Positions 38,560-47,023 of a stretch of 64,000 nucleotides of DNA are shown piece by piece (position 1 is the stretch's first letter; each line of letters starts with the position of its first letter). Source of the DNA: a virus. The translations under genes were made by a program, and so were the position numbers. The notes beneath the pieces are model-generated. The model was not told where the DNA came from. It worked only from the letters and a program-made list of their open reading frames with translations, and ran no database searches. The DNA lies in IMG/VR virus record IMGVR_UViG_3300042398_000969, positions 64,001 through 128,000 of that record; one strand, 5' to 3'.

Positions 38560-39372
38560 TTATAAATATTTTAGGAGAGAAAAGCTCTCGTTTCTTAATT
38601 TTTTTATTGCTTTATCTTTTAATTGACGAATCCTTTCTTTGGTGCAACCAAACTCTTCACCAAGATCCTCTAAGTTTTTTTCTGTACCCATCAATCCAAA
38701 GTAACCATCAATGATTGCTCTTTCTCTTTCATCTAGAAAAGACATCATGTAATTAATTCTGTGTTTAAGATCCTCCGCACTATTCGCTATTGTATCTGGT
38801 AATTCGGCGTTTGGATTTGCAATGATCTCAACCAAAGTATCACCATCCTCATTAATCTCTCTAAATAAATCAATTGTAGATGGTATACCTGTTAATGGAA
38901 CTTCAGAATATTCAATAAAATATTTGTCCTCATCTTTTGCAATTTCTTTCTTTGCCTTTTGTGCATCTTGAATAATGTTAGATGGAACTCTAATTGTTCT
39001 TGAGTATTCATTTAATGAATATAATATTTGTTGTTTTATCCACCACACAGCATATGAAATGAATTTAAAACCAGAAGTCACATCAAACCTTTCTATTGCT
39101 TTGATTAATCCAATATTTCCTTCGGATATTAAATCACTAATATCTAATCCTTGATTTTGATACGTTTTGGCAACCGAAATAACAAAACGTAAGTTTCCTT
39201 CTACAACCTCATCTGTTAACTTCTGTCGATCAGCTTTCGTCAGACTCTTGTTTTCTTTTAAACTTTTGAAAATTTCATACTCTCTTTCGTGAGTAATAAC
39301 AGGGATTTTCTTTAAATCCTTTAAGTAGTACTGAATTTCTTCAGTTTTAACGATGGGTGCAGTCTTCTTCAT
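38560..39372 (-). CDS. RNA polymerase sigma70-family factor (short Bacteroidota RpoD type)
   Basis: NLRFVISVAK.Y, DLISEGNIGLIKA.ERFD, FISYAVWWI.Q, TKERIRQL. Confidence 0.93.
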   Translation of the reverse strand: MKKTAPIVKTEEIQYYLKDLKKIPVITHEREYEIFKSLKENKSLTKADRQKLTDEVVEGNLRFVISVAKTYQNQGLDISDLISEGNIGLIKAIERFDVTSGFKFISYAVWWIKQQILYSLNEYSRTIRVPSNIIQDAQKAKKEIAKDEDKYFIEYSEVPLTGIPSTIDLFREINEDGDTLVEIIANPNAELPDTIANSAEDLKHRINYMMSFLDERERAIIDGYFGLMGTEKNLEDLGEEFGCTKERIRQLKDKAIKKLRNESFSLLKYL

Positions 39373-39905: not shown

Positions 39906-40550
39906 TTATTTTTTACTACCTATTTTCCAGTAGATACCGCCGCCAAGGTATGGTGTAAATGAGCCGCTTATTCTATCTGGGCCAACTGTGTTTTCAATAC
40001 CACCACTTATTCTATAAATTCTATCTCGTTTGTCTTTGATTATAAAGCCAAGACCAAGAAGTCTTACGTAGTTAGGGTCATCAAACTTAGAGTCAAAGCC
40101 AAAATAATAAGTTGTTTTACGTGGCTCCGGTGTATATACTGTATCTCTAACAGTTGTTTGTTTAACTTTTGCATCTATTTTCCTAGACACAATTTTGTTC
40201 TGTGAAATTTCATCAGTTACAGCAACAGTACCTTGATTATTCGGTAAAACCAATAAATCTTTATGTTCTGTTTTAGCTGTATATATTTTTAAAATTTCAG
40301 CAGTATCAACCTTCTGCATTACCGGTACTTCTACCAATTTTTCAACCTGAACCTCAACTTCGACTGGAACTTCAACCTCCACCTCAACCTCCATCTCTAC
40401 GGTATCGTGGACTGGATACGGAATTGAATCAATTCTGTGAAGGTATTCAACTCTGTTTGGCATTATTCCTTTTGGGTTAATAGCTACCAACGCTGTTGAT
40501 GCTGTTAATACCAAAATTATTATGTTTCGAATGTCTAGGTATTTCTTCAT
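39906..40550 (-). CDS. N-terminally anchored protein with beta-rich C-terminus (lysis accessory/spanin-like)
   Basis: N-terminal TM, EV repeats, C-terminal YLGGGIYWKI amphipathic strand. Confidence 0.45.
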   Translation of the reverse strand: MKKYLDIRNIIILVLTASTALVAINPKGIMPNRVEYLHRIDSIPYPVHDTVEMEVEVEVEVPVEVEVQVEKLVEVPVMQKVDTAEILKIYTAKTEHKDLLVLPNNQGTVAVTDEISQNKIVSRKIDAKVKQTTVRDTVYTPEPRKTTYYFGFDSKFDDPNYVRLLGLGFIIKDKRDRIYRISGGIENTVGPDRISGSFTPYLGGGIYWKIGSKK

Positions 40551-40551
40551 T

Positions 40552-40971
40552 TTATTTAAGTAATAACATTGATGTTGCTATAACACCAACAAATGAACCA
40601 ATCTTATACAAAAAAGTCTTTCTTCTTTGCCCCTTCAACTCTTTTAATAAGCCGTCAGATTTAGCCCTTTCTAAAGAAAATTGTTCGTCTTTCTTTGAAA
40701 TGATAAGTTCTAGATTACTTATTTTTTGATCTTTTAAGGTGTCTTTTTGTTTAAATAGATTAATTTGATCGTCTTTTAAACTGATTACTTTTTTCAATTC
40801 AGCGATTTCTAGCTTAGCACCATCATAACGAAGTAGATCTTGGTATACTAATCTAGCAACTCTTGTTGATAAGACCACCTTAGTTGTATCTTGCTTATTT
40901 AGAGTATCTGTCTGTGAATAACTGCTCAAGCTCAGTGTTACCAATAGTGTTAACAATATTAACTTTTTCAT
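40552..40971 (-). CDS. Signal peptide + coiled coil + C-terminal TM (spanin-like)
   Basis: MKKLILLTLLVTLSLSSYSQ; overlaps upstream gene by 77 nt. Confidence 0.5.
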   Translation of the reverse strand: MKKLILLTLLVTLSLSSYSQTDTLNKQDTTKVVLSTRVARLVYQDLLRYDGAKLEIAELKKVISLKDDQINLFKQKDTLKDQKISNLELIISKKDEQFSLERAKSDGLLKELKGQRRKTFLYKIGSFVGVIATSMLLLK

Positions 40972-41233
40972 CTGTTTCGTTTTTAATTAAGGTTATGTTT
41001 TTAGTCACGTTATTGATGTTTGCATCAACTTTATTAATGTCTTTATCAATTGTAACAATTTGTTCGGTTAATTTTTCATTAATTACCTGAACAGAATCAA
41101 TCTCATTTTGGATTGAATCAATTTTAGCATTATAGCCGGCCACATCGGTTTTGATACCACTTCCTTGGAAAATGCTATAAGCCGCTAAACAAGCTATTAA
41201 AACTAGTAAAATGTTGGTTTTATTAATTTTCAT
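40895..41233 (-). CDS. TM-anchored coiled-coil protein (i-spanin-like)
   Basis: N-terminal TM then heptad pattern; upstream TATTTATA. Confidence 0.5.
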   Translation of the reverse strand: MKINKTNILLVLIACLAAYSIFQGSGIKTDVAGYNAKIDSIQNEIDSVQVINEKLTEQIVTIDKDINKVDANINNVTKNITLIKNETDEKVNIVNTIGNTELEQLFTDRYSK

Positions 41234-41249
41234 CTTTATGTTTTACTAT

Positions 41250-41279
41250 AAATACAAACGGGGTACAAAAAGTACCCCG
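41250..41279 (-). terminator. Intrinsic terminator hairpin
   Basis: 8-bp stem CGGGGTAC/GTACCCCG (41259-41279) followed by TTTGTATTT. Confidence 0.65.
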
Positions 41280-41307
41280 AATGCCTGACCTTGTGATTAG
41301 TTTATTG

Positions 41308-42153
41308 TTAAAATTTGGTTCCGCAATGTGGACAGAACTTATGTGTGTCTTTCTTTCTTTTGCTACCACACTCTGCGCAATATGTGACCAAATCCTCCCT
41401 AGTTTTCAATTTAGTTGATTCTGGCTTGATTTTCCACCAATTAGTGGTTGATGGCCAAGTATTAAATGAAGTGTTGTCATATGTAAAGGATTGACCAGAA
41501 ACCGAACCTTTTTCTACTCTACCAGTTTCGAGACTTTTTTTACCTATTGGTTCATTGTATAAACCTTTATTTTTAATATCCCTTAAGATTGAATTAGTAT
41601 TTATACCACTTGTATATGTTGCGTTATTGTAAAACGCGGTACCAGTACTTGTTGTGGTAAAAGTCCCGTGAGTTGGTATTGATGTACCGCCTAAGGTATT
41701 ATGCGTTGTGTATGTATATGGTGAACCTGTATTTATCCAAGCTGGATTACTAATTGTTAGTGTAGAACTACCGCTTAAATAAGTTGGTGTAACAATTTCA
41801 TTATAAAACTTTACTGTTACATCGCCATTATTGGCAATAGCTTGTTGTACTTCTTCAGTATCACCATTTACTGCGTATGTTTCAAACAAAAACTTCTTTG
41901 CCTCGTCAAGATACCTTTCGAGGAAAACACGTTCACCTGGACGAAGTATAATACCATTACCAATGGAATTACCATTCATCTCGATTTTTGCTAAAACTTT
42001 ATTTTGTGTGGGATTGTAAAGTTCGATTTCGAACTCATCACCGTTATTAAGATAAACGGTATCAACGTGCTGTTTTAATCTTTTTTTACTTTTAGTAATG
42101 AAAGATTGTGGTACAGCGAAACCAGTTGTGTTAACTGAAATTCTTCTGTTCAT
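41308..42153 (-). CDS. Hypothetical protein with C-terminal zinc ribbon
   Basis: CAECG...FCPHCG at C-terminus; Thr-rich central linker. Confidence 0.8.
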   Translation of the reverse strand: MNRRISVNTTGFAVPQSFITKSKKRLKQHVDTVYLNNGDEFEIELYNPTQNKVLAKIEMNGNSIGNGIILRPGERVFLERYLDEAKKFLFETYAVNGDTEEVQQAIANNGDVTVKFYNEIVTPTYLSGSSTLTISNPAWINTGSPYTYTTHNTLGGTSIPTHGTFTTTSTGTAFYNNATYTSGINTNSILRDIKNKGLYNEPIGKKSLETGRVEKGSVSGQSFTYDNTSFNTWPSTTNWWKIKPESTKLKTREDLVTYCAECGSKRKKDTHKFCPHCGTKF

Positions 42154-42169
42154 TTTTCCTTATATTTTT

Positions 42170-42250
42170 TTTGTATTTGAACCCGAATTCGTTGGTATCA
42201 ATTCCAACTCAAATGCCTCAAGGACACTTCGACTTCAACCACAAGGTCTA
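42170..42250 (-). promoter_or_regulatory. Structured 5' leader RNA candidate
   Basis: GC-enriched leader with stems GTTGG/CCAAC and ATTTGA/TCAAAT; complementary to the same gene's 3' UTR. Confidence 0.5.
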
Positions 42251-42271
42251 TTATAAGTATATGTAAATTAA

Positions 42272-42301
42272 TAAAAAAAGGGAAGCCTAAAAGACTTCCC
42301 T
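42272..42301 (-). terminator. Intrinsic terminator after clpP
   Basis: GGGAAG/CTTCCC stem followed by T7. Confidence 0.8.
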
Positions 42302-42327
42302 CCACACACAAAAATGGACACACAAAA

Positions 42328-42999
42328 CTATTTCTTTTTAACTATCTCATCAATGATACCATAAGCTAGAGCATCGTCTGCTGATAACCATAAGTCTCTA
42401 GATGCATCTTGTTTTACTTGTTCTCCAGATTTACCACAATATTCACCCAATAAGTCAAATAAAATATTATTTAACTTCTCCCACTCAATCATATCAATCT
42501 TAGCGTCTTGAATGTTACCTCTAAATCCACCAGAAGATTGGTGTAACATAGTTCTTGAGAATCTCAATGATCCACGTTTACCTTTCGTTCCTGCACCCAA
42601 CAAGATTGAACCCATAGATGCTGCCATACCTGTATTAATAGTTCTAATATCAGACTTAATATATGCCATAACATCAACCATAGATAAACCAGATTTAACT
42701 GATCCGCCAGGACTATCAATATGCATTGTAATATCATTATTATCTAAACTATCCAAGAACATTAACTGAGCTTGTACAACAGTTGACATGTGATCATTAA
42801 CTTCTCCAGCAACCCAAATGATTCTTTCCATCATTAATCTACTGAATACATCCATCACCGTTACATTTAAACTTCTTTCTTCAAGAATGTATGGTGTTAA
42901 ACTGCTTTCAATACTTTTATTGAAATTGTGGATGTTTAAGGAGCTTACTCCAAAGTCTTTTGCGTAAAGACCGAAATCTTTGTAATCTTTAGGTGTCAT
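42328..42999 (-). CDS. clpP: ATP-dependent Clp protease proteolytic subunit
   Basis: DVFSRLM.ERII, IDSPGG, GMAASMG (Ser), MLHQ (His), RD.W (Asp); ATG 42999 follows TATATTTG box. Confidence 0.93.
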   Translation of the reverse strand: MTPKDYKDFGLYAKDFGVSSLNIHNFNKSIESSLTPYILEERSLNVTVMDVFSRLMMERIIWVAGEVNDHMSTVVQAQLMFLDSLDNNDITMHIDSPGGSVKSGLSMVDVMAYIKSDIRTINTGMAASMGSILLGAGTKGKRGSLRFSRTMLHQSSGGFRGNIQDAKIDMIEWEKLNNILFDLLGEYCGKSGEQVKQDASRDLWLSADDALAYGIIDEIVKKK

Positions 43000-43041
43000 A
43001 TCTATTAATTGTTTAAGCAAATATAATTAATGTTTTCCAAA

Positions 43042-45378
43042 TTAAGAAATTTTGGTAGAAATGTAATCGATTGAAGACACGTTTTCCTCTTTTTTAATCA
43101 TGATAAGGTTATCGGACCAGTTCCTAATCAATGGGTTATGCGAAATTACGAAAATATGTTCAAAATAATTTTTAATTTTCTTAAAGAACTCACCAACCAT
43201 CTCTAGGTTCTCATCAGCAACTTTACCAAATACCTCGTCCATTACAACTATGTTTGGTTTAGGTAGTGAAGATACTTTTGTTAATACACTTCTCAATGCT
43301 AAAGATGAAATTGTTCTTTCATAACCAGATCCAGCATTTAATGGTTTAATAACTCTGGTTTCAGAATCAATCATGATAAATTCTAATTCGTTCTTATCAT
43401 TAATGTTTAATTCTAAAATAAAATAACAGCTTTCTGATAGTAATCGACTCAATTCCTGATTGATTAGTGGTATCATGTTTTTTAATATCGTTTTTGATAT
43501 ACCATTTTTACCATAAACCAATAGGTATGTTTTAAACACTCCCTGTAGTTCTTCCTCGGCTTTAATTTTAGAAATTAAATCATTAGCGGTACCAATCTTT
43601 TCTTCCATTGAGGTGATATTGTTTTTGTTTCTCTCAATAGTTGTGTCAGATATTCTAATGTCAGCGTTTATTGTTTCTATTTTTGTTTTTAAAGTAACCA
43701 TCTCATTGTGAATCTTTTGGTTATCTTCAAGTTTCTTTCTGTTAGCTTCGTAGTTGTCTAACTTTTGCTGCTTAGTGTTGATCTCAAGTTGTTTTTGTTC
43801 AACCTCCAACTCGTATCTTTCTTTACGAAGTTTGTTTCTCTCGTAATTATCAAATTCTGTCTTCAGGGCCTCAAAAGATTCGGACTCTTTTCTTAAAGTT
43901 TCCAATTCTTTATCACAATTTTCTCTATCTTTTTCAATTTGTTCAATTTCTTTCTTTGTCTCTTCAATCTCATCTGTATGATCAACCTCATCTAAGGGTC
44001 TATTACACTTAGGACATATCTTACCCTCTTCTAATAGCTTAATATGTTTTTCTTTTTCTGTTTTCTCTCTCTCACCTAAACGATTCTCCATAACCAACTG
44101 ATTGATTTTCTCTTTCAATTGTCCGTGTTCTTCTTCAAGATAATAACGTGATGGCTCTATAACTGAAATACCGTCAGCATTTTGTTGACTTGCTTGTTTT
44201 TGTAATTTTAAGCCAGCAATATCTTTTTCTAATGTTGTTGGATTAGTTCTTATTAGTTCTTGATCAATATCATTAGATCTTAAACCTAATATTAATTCTT
44301 TTCTATCCTCAAATTCTTTAAGTGAGATTTTATATTCACCTAATAACCTAGTATGATTTGTTATTTCACCCTTAGAGTTTGTAATTGCATTACCATAAGA
44401 CTCTATATCGATTTGTAGCTGTGCAATGTTGTGACTATTACTGATTAATTTCTTAGCCCAATCATTGTAGATGTTTCTACATACTTCTTCCTTTTGCTTT
44501 AATGATTCTAAGCCCAAAAATTTAGTCAATATTTGACCTCTAGCTGTTGGTTTAGATTCAATCAACTCTTCTAAGTTGTAACCTGTTGTAAGAATTGTTG
44601 ATAAGAAATCTTCTTCGGTACCAATAGCTGACGCAATAAAGGTTTCTGTTTCTCTTCTTTGTTCTCCAGTTAAATTTTCTAATTCCCCATCAGCTTTTTC
44701 TTTATAGAATTCTAATTCACTCTTAACTGTATAGTCACCAGATCTTCCTTTCTTTCTAGTTAATGTTCTTACAATAACATATTCTTCACCATCAATTGTG
44801 ATGTATCCTTTAACAGATACTGTATCAACATCAGTAAACTTGTTAAAGATTTCAGCATTTGTTTTTGTCTTTGTTGTTGAATTAAAAAACAAAAACATTA
44901 ATAGGTCAACACTAGATGTTGACTTACCACCAAAGTTTCTTGGATTGGATTCAATTACAGTAATCCCATCCAGACTTGTAAAATCAATAGTATTATTATC
45001 ACCAAATGAAAGAAAATTGGAGAATTCAACCTTCTTAATAAACCACTTATTATACCTGACTTTATTTTCATTTTCTTTATTGATTTCGGTGTTAACACGA
45101 TTGTCTAATCTATCAACTAATTCCCACTTAATTTGAACATCATTCTCTGTTAAGAAATCTTTCATTAATTTCTTTTGAAATTGATTGTCCAATATATTAT
45201 CACTAACCTCTAGAGTTTTAAGTCTAGTGTCCTGCTTTTGGCTTAACGTCTTGGTGATTACTTGAACATGTGTTGTGTTATACTTTGTTTGAAAGTATGT
45301 TTTAACACGTTTGATACGTTCTGGGGTAAAGTTTTCTGCAACGTCTTCCCACTCTACTTTTATAAAAGGATTGTTCAT
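43042..45378 (-). CDS. sbcC: Rad50/SbcC-like ATPase (gp46-like)
   Basis: NFLSFG, Walker A GGKST, coiled coils, CPKC hook, SGYE signature, MDEVFG, ISH. Confidence 0.88.
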   Translation of the reverse strand: MNNPFIKVEWEDVAENFTPERIKRVKTYFQTKYNTTHVQVITKTLSQKQDTRLKTLEVSDNILDNQFQKKLMKDFLTENDVQIKWELVDRLDNRVNTEINKENENKVRYNKWFIKKVEFSNFLSFGDNNTIDFTSLDGITVIESNPRNFGGKSTSSVDLLMFLFFNSTTKTKTNAEIFNKFTDVDTVSVKGYITIDGEEYVIVRTLTRKKGRSGDYTVKSELEFYKEKADGELENLTGEQRRETETFIASAIGTEEDFLSTILTTGYNLEELIESKPTARGQILTKFLGLESLKQKEEVCRNIYNDWAKKLISNSHNIAQLQIDIESYGNAITNSKGEITNHTRLLGEYKISLKEFEDRKELILGLRSNDIDQELIRTNPTTLEKDIAGLKLQKQASQQNADGISVIEPSRYYLEEEHGQLKEKINQLVMENRLGEREKTEKEKHIKLLEEGKICPKCNRPLDEVDHTDEIEETKKEIEQIEKDRENCDKELETLRKESESFEALKTEFDNYERNKLRKERYELEVEQKQLEINTKQQKLDNYEANRKKLEDNQKIHNEMVTLKTKIETINADIRISDTTIERNKNNITSMEEKIGTANDLISKIKAEEELQGVFKTYLLVYGKNGISKTILKNMIPLINQELSRLLSESCYFILELNINDKNELEFIMIDSETRVIKPLNAGSGYERTISSLALRSVLTKVSSLPKPNIVVMDEVFGKVADENLEMVGEFFKKIKNYFEHIFVISHNPLIRNWSDNLIMIKKEENVSSIDYISTKIS

Positions 45379-45415
45379 GTATTAAAATTACATTATTAAA
45401 ATTAAAAAACAAAAA

Positions 45416-45730
45416 TTACTTGATTCTGGATTCTTCAAAGAATTCCACGATACCATTAATAGCCCATACCATACCACAGGTTGCCATACCATCGAAAAAT
45501 ATCGAGAATAACCAGTTGGTATCTAATATTCTACTAGCTAGTCCACCCAAAACGATAGACATAAAAAAACCAACCCAAGTTGATGTACACATCATACATC
45601 CAATTAGATCACCGAAAAACTTTGAGTTTCTCTTTATCCAAGCTCTTGGCTTGTCAAAAATTGAACCGTAAACCAAAATGGTGGTCATACCGTATCCAAT
45701 AAACGCCCATAATACTACAATACTAATCAT
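45416..45730 (-). CDS. DUF1360-like membrane protein
   Basis: GDLIGCMMCTSTWVG plus TM helices. Confidence 0.6.
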   Translation of the reverse strand: MISIVVLWAFIGYGMTTILVYGSIFDKPRAWIKRNSKFFGDLIGCMMCTSTWVGFFMSIVLGGLASRILDTNWLFSIFFDGMATCGMVWAINGIVEFFEESRIK

Positions 45731-45741
45731 ATATTTAATTT

Positions 45742-46236
45742 TTATTCTTCGTACAAATTATTGAGATCACTTCCTTTAAGATATCTTGCTTTATTCATTT
45801 TTTCAAGAGATTCTGTGATCTTGTTTAACTCGTCTTTTAATTTTTTATTTTCTTCTTTTAGTAATTTATTTTCAGCATCGTCGCTAACGATCTTTTCAAC
45901 TATAACCTCTTTTATAACTTCTTTTGTTATTACCTGAGTTTCGCCTTTTATCTCAACCGGTACCTCTTTTATTACTTCAACAATCTTTTCAACAGGAACT
46001 TCTTTTATTATTTCAACAATTTTCTCCACCTCGATAATTTTTTCAATTTCCTTGATGACTTCTTTTTCAATAATAGTTTCTTTCCCTTTTGATGCAACTG
46101 GTGTTTCACCAAATTTAAGAATTGTGAAACCTCGCTGAAATGTTTTTTTAGCTAGGCCCTCAATATCTACAATTTTATTTAATTCACAATATCTGGTGAA
46201 TTCATCATCCAGCATTAATGATTGTTTCTTTTTCAT
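45742..46236 (-). CDS. Hypothetical protein with EVIKEVPVEK charged repeats and coiled coil
   Basis: Repeated KEVIKE/EVPVEK motifs. Confidence 0.7.
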   Translation of the reverse strand: MKKKQSLMLDDEFTRYCELNKIVDIEGLAKKTFQRGFTILKFGETPVASKGKETIIEKEVIKEIEKIIEVEKIVEIIKEVPVEKIVEVIKEVPVEIKGETQVITKEVIKEVIVEKIVSDDAENKLLKEENKKLKDELNKITESLEKMNKARYLKGSDLNNLYEE

Positions 46237-47023
46237 CTTCTATGTCTTTTATATCTGATATGCTAAAGTGCATAAAAGGTTTTTCATTTTGCAAATCAAA
46301 AAATTGATAATCATTATTATCAACGTCATATACACCGTACCCATGATGTTTTATTGTTTCACCAAAATTCTGTTGAATTAATGACCCAATCATTACAGCT
46401 AATCCACCGCCAGGTAATTTAAATGTTTGTCTCTTATGAATGTCACCACATAGTAATAAATCCAAACCAACAAAGTTTAAACGGTCATAACCATCTTCAA
46501 ATTTAAACCCAAGATCAGTTGACATTCCTTGAATTGCGCCATGGAATAAACCAACATTTAGTTTATCTTCTGTGTTCTTAAACTCTGGTCTCTGGTTATG
46601 TTGGTACAATGAATATACCACCCAATTAACGTTTTCATCCGGATACACACCCATATCTTTATAATAAACAATATTATCATTGTCTAGTAATTCAACAACA
46701 GGTGTGATACTATCTAGTCTTTGAGTATTATTCTCTAAGAAGTCATGATTACCAGGAATGATAACAACCTTACCATATGAAGTTAATTCTCTTAAGAACC
46801 AACTAGTTAAAAGAAGTTGTTCATTCGAGATATTAATCTTTTGATGTGCGATGTCACCCGCAATAACAATTCTAATTTCGTTGTGCGATATACCCTCATC
46901 TGTCCATTCTAAAAATTTAGCTCCAATTTCTTTTAACAATTTTTCAAACTGTTCTTTATACAAATCATGTAACTGAATTGTACGAATGTGGAGATCAGCA
47001 ATGTGTATTATTTTCTTTATCAT
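46205..47023 (-). CDS. sbcD: Mre11/SbcD-like metallophosphoesterase (gp47-like)
   Basis: ADLH, AGD, PGNHD, HG, GDIH motifs. Confidence 0.88.
   Translation of the reverse strand: MIKKIIHIADLHIRTIQLHDLYKEQFEKLLKEIGAKFLEWTDEGISHNEIRIVIAGDIAHQKINISNEQLLLTSWFLRELTSYGKVVIIPGNHDFLENNTQRLDSITPVVELLDNDNIVYYKDMGVYPDENVNWVVYSLYQHNQRPEFKNTEDKLNVGLFHGAIQGMSTDLGFKFEDGYDRLNFVGLDLLLCGDIHKRQTFKLPGGGLAVMIGSLIQQNFGETIKHHGYGVYDVDNNDYQFFDLQNEKPFMHFSISDIKDIEDEKETIINAG

Follow-up and report, generated by a model that had tools for sequence, protein, structure and literature searches.

What purpose is served when the leader and the 3′ untranslated region (UTR) of one phage message pair with each other across the gene between them? 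The question is raised by a 281-aa open reading frame (ORF) in the window (the whole 64,000-nt stretch of DNA analyzed here), which sits on a 169-kb virus record. An earlier note on this DNA had reported a 13-bp duplex between the leader (42248–42236) and the 3′ UTR (41299–41287), 8 nt after the stop codon, and both the sequence and the pairing pattern are as it described: nine Watson–Crick pairs, a G–U pair, two Watson–Crick pairs and a second G–U pair. This helix is referred to as P1, and the features of its transcription unit are as follows.

42277–42303, minus strand: intrinsic terminator of the upstream clpP gene (assigned by Pfam PF00574), which insulates the unit
42253–42261, minus strand: A/T motif resembling a promoter, separated by 4 nt from the 5′ strand of P1 that follows it
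42236–42248, minus strand: 5′ arm of P1, the switch strand, of which 42246–42240 alternatively pairs with the initiation region
42228–42238, minus strand: 5′ strand of P2, pairing with 42187–42177, with a 3-nt overlap with P1 and compensatory changes at most pairs
42213–42227, minus strand: P3 hairpin
42209–42212, minus strand: junction strand U-N-G-A, putative k-junction loop, G1b and A2b
42191–42208, minus strand: P4 hairpin, whose loop engages the 3′ end in a kissing contact in other lineages
42188–42190, minus strand: junction strand R-A-W, putative 2n and A1n
42177–42187, minus strand: 3′ strand of P2
42158–42164, minus strand: initiation-region element UAUAAGG at –11 to –5, the local partner of the switch strand and not a generic Shine–Dalgarno sequence
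41308–42153, minus strand: 281-aa ORF with Ig-like β-sandwich, disordered insert and C-terminal C4 zinc ribbon
41287–41299, minus strand: 3′ arm of P1, 8 nt after the stop codon
41278–41286, minus strand: window-specific AGGCAUUCG stretch, not conserved and outside the element
41259–41279, minus strand: intrinsic terminator hairpin of the 281-aa gene, followed by a U-rich tail

The ORF is flanked by the clpP gene with its own terminator and by a cluster of membrane/coiled-coil genes. Transcription of the unit presumably starts just downstream of the A/T motif at 42253–42261. In 48 of 55 representatives a similar motif is found no more than about 12 nt from P1, with the 5′ arm beginning a few bases after it, and this motif and TATTTAT are enriched upstream of ORFs in the genome G000 (6 vs 0 and 23 vs 1 of 129, respectively). 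Near the locus, the window also holds genes for a phage sigma-70-type factor, ClpP and SbcC/SbcD-like proteins (38560–39372, 42328–43020 and 43042–47023), and the three downstream membrane/coiled-coil genes (39906–41233), two of which overlap, resemble a cysteine-free spanin-like module. A tRNA/tmRNA search returned none.

Very large freshwater phages carry homologues in abundance (40 close loci; 2760 proteins; 2463 clusters at 50%), and others occur in Lak phages of Prevotella and in phages of 460–735 kb. From 375 fetched loci, 209 non-redundant complete loci were kept, of which 201 could be parsed. The genes surrounding them belong to 157 neighbor families, and among the 33 closest loci, 11 have clpP upstream; the variety of neighbors indicates that the transcription unit is self-contained.

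Conservation of the end-to-end helix

Within its own genome, the 5′/3′ complementarity of the window gene ranks second among 146 ORFs (score 29; mean 15.8, sd 3.1). The sole gene above it, at 45416–45730, owes its rank to 16 A/U-rich pairs that look compositional. In the folded 1000-nt window mRNA, the first 11 pairs of P1 have probabilities of 0.98–1.0. Whole-region duplex energies compared with shuffles are dominated by the terminators and carry no information. As a single-gene event P1 is unusual, not unique; on comparative grounds it becomes certain through conservation together with covariation.

At a fixed threshold, P1 is found in 128 of the 201 parsed loci, a loop–loop (kissing) contact in 57 and neither in 16. 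Among these 16, a longer spacer precedes P1 in L099 and L130, P1 of L078 contains a mismatch and L331 combines two clades in one chimera; end pairing is undetectable in about ten loci. The spacer from the stop codon to the 3′ arm is mostly 5–14 nt, with 46–54 nt tolerated. In the 3′ UTR of L130, a tandem duplication stretches it to 54 nt with a 17-bp P1 retained. The L331 gene has an N-terminal half identical to a kissing clade, a C-terminal end 90% like L225 and a mismatched leader and 3′ UTR; it may be an assembly artefact or a recombinant.

The complementarity is maintained by mutually compensating changes in at least 12 sequence types, which are not fully independent: each 5′ strand scores 26.0 with its own 3′ UTR against 12.0 in cross-combinations, a difference reached in 0 of 200,000 permutations. 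Conservation of the end pairing in homologues, which the earlier note had put forward as a check, is thereby borne out. The same note had favored pairing at the RNA over the DNA level, and this too holds, through covariation and through the mismatches in the leader helices described below, where G–U outnumbers A–C by 204 to 23, pointing to selection on the mRNA strand. Comparison of the homologues thus indicates that the 13-bp duplex is real and is selected as RNA. A DNA-level inverted repeat serving gene inversion, excision or mobility would suit the widely varying neighbors, but it is barely credible and has largely been refuted already: G–U is tolerated on the mRNA strand and A–C avoided, the sequences of the two arms change together, the orientation with respect to promoter and terminator never varies across the 209 loci, and no recurring recombinase was found among the top neighbor families.

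Beyond the 13 bp, the nucleotides 41286–41278 had been read as a strand-exchange partner, able to pair with 42231–42221 and duplicating the AGGCAUU of 42218–42212. These matches are present in the window, but AGGCAUU occurs in the 3′ UTR of only 1 of 209 loci, the window itself, and AGGCAUUCG is rejected as an exchange partner. Likewise, the proposed overlap of the 3′ element with the terminator applies to this non-conserved extension (2 nt) and not to the conserved 3′ strand of P1, and the AUUUGA/UCAAAU helix proposed near the start codon is rejected as not the conserved one: UCAA pairs with 42238–42235 in P2, and 42212–42209 forms an unpaired junction strand.

The leader junction and its kissing contact

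Helices P2, P3 and P4, arranged around U-N-G-A and R-A-W with zero bases between P2 and P3, are common to all clades. In these helices 97.5% of cells are paired and 10 pairs show double changes (0 of 500 shuffles), and in the junction no more than four bases come close to invariance. Reading the leader as a pseudoknot was dropped, as the same pairs make the nested P2, and pairing of the P3 loop with the 3′ UTR shows no overall excess. The junction resembles the k-junctions of the TPP riboswitch and the DUF3268 RNA, three-way junctions in which a short loop is followed by GA opposite RA and the third helix lies on the non-bulged strand (PMC4005666, PMC10573300). With letters and lengths left unconstrained, the best three-way fold places GA opposite RA in 65 of 71 representatives, where a k-junction has its tandem G1b·A1n and A2b·G/A2n positions at the foot of the NC helix, and abuts P2 to P3 at 0 nt in 61 of 71, the topology of PMC4005666, in which the third helix is coaxial with the C helix. 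When G and A were imposed, position 2n was G in 41, A in 29 and U in 1. Two unpaired bases and a terminal G–U pair (55/71) could correspond to L1:c1, L2 and L3, with one base after A1n. Judged from sequence, both its topology and its bases agree with the k-junction pattern, which makes the junction a candidate further natural k-junction, and by Rfam it belongs to neither the DUF3268 nor the TPP family.

The leader is specific to this gene. A covariance model built from nine close leaders found 16 of 27 distant leaders in the correct place and on the correct strand with zero other matches, and it detects one copy in the genome. In a pattern scan of IMG/VR, 105 of 119 matches precede this gene and 4 its truncated start; the remaining 10, which lack P2/P3, are chance matches, and no leader was found before other genes. 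The earlier note had called for an Rfam search for a structured RNA; Rfam 15, including DUF3268, TPP, hammerhead and twister, gave no family for the window or for the leaders of 15 diverse loci. The RNA catalogue of Fremin 2023 is said to hold more than 10,000 viral candidates; the leader, absent from Rfam, may already have an entry among them. A 68-nt contig covering only the leader (42166–42233, 100% identical, depth about 50) occurs in the freshwater RNA run X3 and runs into adapter at 42233, immediately beyond P1, although neither transcript ends nor levels can be read from contigs.

Loop–loop pairing between the leader and the 3′ end takes the place of P1 in 57 loci, which belong to three or more lineages. 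In the largest of these clades, the P4 loop is invariant (50/50) and so is the complementary terminator loop (49/49), while P3 has 25 variants and the terminator stem 7; 0 of 47 unrelated 3′ UTRs score as high. The second clade carries a compensatory change and a G–U variant, and the third (L123) uses an unrelated loop pair, CUUGGG with CCCAAG; for L208 and L123, 3 of 47 unrelated UTRs score equally high. The starred branches of a quick tree force at least three changes to the kissing state. In L292 the loop is lost with the 3′ word kept, so the contact can lapse. As judged from these alignments, end-joining itself is under selection and is kept by two different means.

Replacement of P1 also bears on the suggestions, made in the earlier note, of mRNA circularization or a split structured RNA. 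Paired ends around an insert do resemble processing stems, and P1 could be such a stem, or part of a split ribozyme, that releases or covalently circularizes the RNA. We consider this highly improbable and found no support for it: the sequence of P1 is free across clades and can be exchanged for a loop–loop contact, near-invariance is confined to the four junction bases, and neither an Rfam match nor a hammerhead core was found (CUGANGA, GAAA and UH are absent, and the junction strands are 4, 3 and 0 nt). RNA runs yielded only Logan contigs of related strains (shares 0.05–0.15). None of these joins the two ends, but contigs reveal neither termini nor strand nor abundance, and the result therefore counts neither for nor against.

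A competing helix at the start region

The 5′ strand of P1 has a second, local partner. In the window, CCUUGUG pairs with UAUAAGG at about –12 to –5 of the start codon, and the 3′ arm, which repeats this start-region motif in the same sense, pairs with the same 5′ strand. Across clades both sides of the local helix change together (GCCUG/CAGGU, CCUC/GAGG, UCUUAU/AUAAGA, UCUGG/CCAGA, UUAACU/AGUUAA and UCCUUUU/AAAAGGA). Own combinations score 12.6 against 9.4 for cross-combinations (0 of 200,000 permutations), in comparison windows that were picked after inspection; the own partner ranks first or second in 11 of 12 types, and type L372 shows no start-region excess. Five controls, four coding windows and an upstream strand, give no signal (p 0.36–0.998). 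In all P1 representatives the local helix overlaps the P1 site by 3–7 nt on the 5′ strand. Within the compared sequences, the 5′ strand, the start region and the 3′ arm form a three-way covariation that is kept over hundreds of phage genomes.

Folding of leaders alone with RNAalifold recovers the start-region helix unprompted, also in 4 of 8 further P1 clades, in the largest kissing clade and in L253; in the consensus folds of 4 of 9 P1 clades, by contrast, the 5′ strand is part of a local hairpin or located elsewhere. In the L253 leader, an 11-bp local helix spans –16 to –6 relative to the start codon, and a 3′ partner was looked for in 120 nt and not found. The paired element is unusual for its genome, where AAGG occurs at –14 to –4 in 3 of 104 ORFs and A peaks at –3 and at –11 to –13, an A-rich initiation profile without Shine–Dalgarno sequence as described in Flavobacterium (PMC6847099).

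Energies of the window leader are –16.7 open and –20.0 closed, the local helix being worth 3.3 kcal/mol; for the joined ends they are –35.1 closed and –44.3 with P1, which is better by 9.2 kcal/mol. Modeled accessibility of –13 to –6 rises from 0.49 to 0.64 once the 3′ UTR is added (19 loci, p 0.011). In the folded full window mRNA the start region is predicted to be unpaired; in a message cut at the stop codon it is also predicted to be open, and the local helix is not predicted.

This weak modeled occlusion would suit a different role, in which end pairing mainly stabilizes the mRNA by setting its 5′ end flush in a duplex and the start-region helix merely parks the 5′ strand until the 3′ end has been made, with little translational effect. 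P1 indeed begins a few nucleotides from the presumed transcription start and ends just before the terminator, and the monocistronic hbs mRNA of B. subtilis offers a precedent, with a UTR–UTR helix of about 14 bp that shields an RNase Y site (PMC5737220). Parking, however, does not call for a partner that recurs at –14 to –4 of the start codon in one clade after another, and a kissing contact at P4 leaves the 5′ end unburied; we regard stabilization as the main role as unlikely on balance. Conservation of the hbs 3′ UTR does not extend to relatives (PMC7821165), whereas the phage helix is conserved with covariation across huge phages including Lak and is accompanied by a competing start-region helix and a junction.

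A further possibility concerns the protein. The model of a short homologue (pLDDT 88.5) shows an Ig-like sandwich with a low-confidence insert and the C4 ribbon at its end; in the 281-aa protein, a disordered Thr/Ser/Gly/Asn-rich insert (about residues 120–205) splits the sandwich. PHROGs gave no match, and sequence searches of the PDB gave matches at the level of the zinc ribbon only. The best VIA Z-scores (6.5–7.1) are to generic Ig-like domains, with no specific solved relative, leaving a p35-like or p53-like assignment unsupported. Foldseek matches the fold to uncharacterized proteins of giant viruses, nudiviruses and iridoviruses, some of the relatives from large eukaryotic DNA viruses being fused to RING domains, and more weakly to nimavirus wsv390 and ranavirus ICP-18; the modeled fold thus appears to define a cross-domain viral family that includes large eukaryotic DNA viruses. 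In the Atlas, the protein links to bacterial clusters bearing DUF7918. One clade has SHOCT in place of the zinc ribbon, and its leader and P1 persist; the RNA element therefore does not depend on the ribbon, and for the earlier idea that the zinc-ribbon protein binds the RNA, binding by the ribbon is disfavored. In L507, a 179-aa ORF with a zinc-ribbon end (635–1174) lies directly upstream of a SHOCT-ending homologue (1288–2247), a possible exchange of tail modules between neighbors. Nine homologues of different clades (L039, L105, L122, L159, L167, L175, L283, L285 and L348) share an extra 65-residue domain after the ribbon, with no Pfam match in L039.

The loop might bring the stop codon to the leader, for re-initiation on the same mRNA or for binding of the fresh protein to its own junction (cis autoregulation or RNP assembly). 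Two unrelated contacts both set the 3′ end at the junction, the spacer after the stop codon is mostly short, the junction occurs only before this gene, and a basic N-terminal motif is conserved in the protein family. Against this, structure comparisons found no RNA-binding relative of the fold, the C-terminal module is exchangeable, the long spacers are tolerated, and a loop alone does not explain the start-region covariation. This role appears clearly unlikely as the explanation, and it is compatible with, not exclusive of, a completion switch.

The proposed completion switch and known systems

Comparison across loci shows the junction, P1, the local helix and the kissing contact, and from these elements we propose a switch that restricts translation to full-length messages, a reading toward which we lean slightly. 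The mRNA would be a two-state closed-loop RNA whose leader forms the three-way junction within a self-contained unit. Its first 10–13 nt can pair either with the start region (5–7 bp, extending P2) or with the 3′ UTR (10–14 bp, P1), and compensatory changes conserve both pairings as well as the junction. During transcription, the 5′ strand would close onto the start region and dampen initiation, which in the presumed Bacteroidota-type host, without Shine–Dalgarno sequences, would need an unstructured A-rich region. Once made, the 3′ UTR would displace the start region, with a gain of about 9 kcal/mol; translation would thereby be switched on and the 5′ end buried, and unfinished, prematurely terminated or 3′-trimmed messages would remain mostly off. 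The probable role of the junction is to hold the ends in position or to bind a protein by which the balance is adjusted. It is probable that only complete messages give protein, an on/off effect that we infer from the competing helices; as precedent, pairing of a distant sequence with the start region blocks translation in vivo (PMC12697547). The earlier proposal of a strand exchange coupling completed transcription to translation thus survives in outline, with the 3′ strand competing with the translation-initiation region rather than with an AGGCAUU hairpin. The switch model alone is an insufficient explanation given two means of end-joining: strand displacement cannot release the start region in the kissing lineages, and about ten loci show no end pairing, so the joining of the ends may have a different purpose.

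The predicted switch is distinct from known systems. In rpoS-type activation, a trans-acting sRNA pairs with an inhibitory leader strand and frees the ribosome site, whereas in the phage each message would be activated in cis through its own 3′ UTR. Type I toxin mRNAs such as hok and H. pylori aapA likewise have a 5′–3′ long-distance helix, which on completion replaces nascent structures that hide the ribosome site (PMC6733600). By comparison, their full-length form hides the ribosome site and is inert until 3′ trimming, whereas the phage 3′ arm, being of the same sense as the start region, is expected to release it, and in the full mRNA the start region is predicted unpaired; toxins are also small and hydrophobic, and the phage product is a 281-aa soluble β-sandwich protein. 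In S. aureus icaR mRNA and RNAIII/hld, the 3′ UTR pairs with the 5′ part of its own mRNA and represses translation as an anti-RBS (PMC7821165); the icaR 3′ UTR is complementary to the ribosome site, whereas the phage 3′ arm repeats the start-region motif and is predicted to be an anti-anti-RBS. In the MS2 maturation gene, closure of a multibranch leader by a complementary sequence upstream covers the ribosome site (PMC4615214), and translation occurs in a kinetic window before the helix forms; here, release is predicted after completion.

Characterized bacterial 5′/3′ UTR pairings repress translation or protect from decay, and 3′ UTRs are mostly unconserved between species (PMC7821165); a non-exhaustive literature search found no case of an mRNA's own 3′ UTR activating its message in cis. 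The predicted sign, by which the 3′ end switches translation on, is opposite to that of these characterized pairings. The phage element itself is real, conserved and absent from Rfam, with a specific testable mechanism, which we hold to be a little more probable than improbable. The broader picture falls just short of an even chance: a cis completion switch across huge Bacteroidota-type phages, in which the 3′ UTR strips away an inhibitory 5′ strand and end-joining is so important that several lineages have re-invented it as a kissing loop, would be an RNA-only prokaryotic functional counterpart of the eukaryotic closed loop. If true, translation of this gene would be deliberately uncoupled from transcription. 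The family would offer a compact natural system for asking whether bacterial ribosomes profit from closed-loop mRNAs, and may provide a portable 'full-length only' expression module for Bacteroidota.
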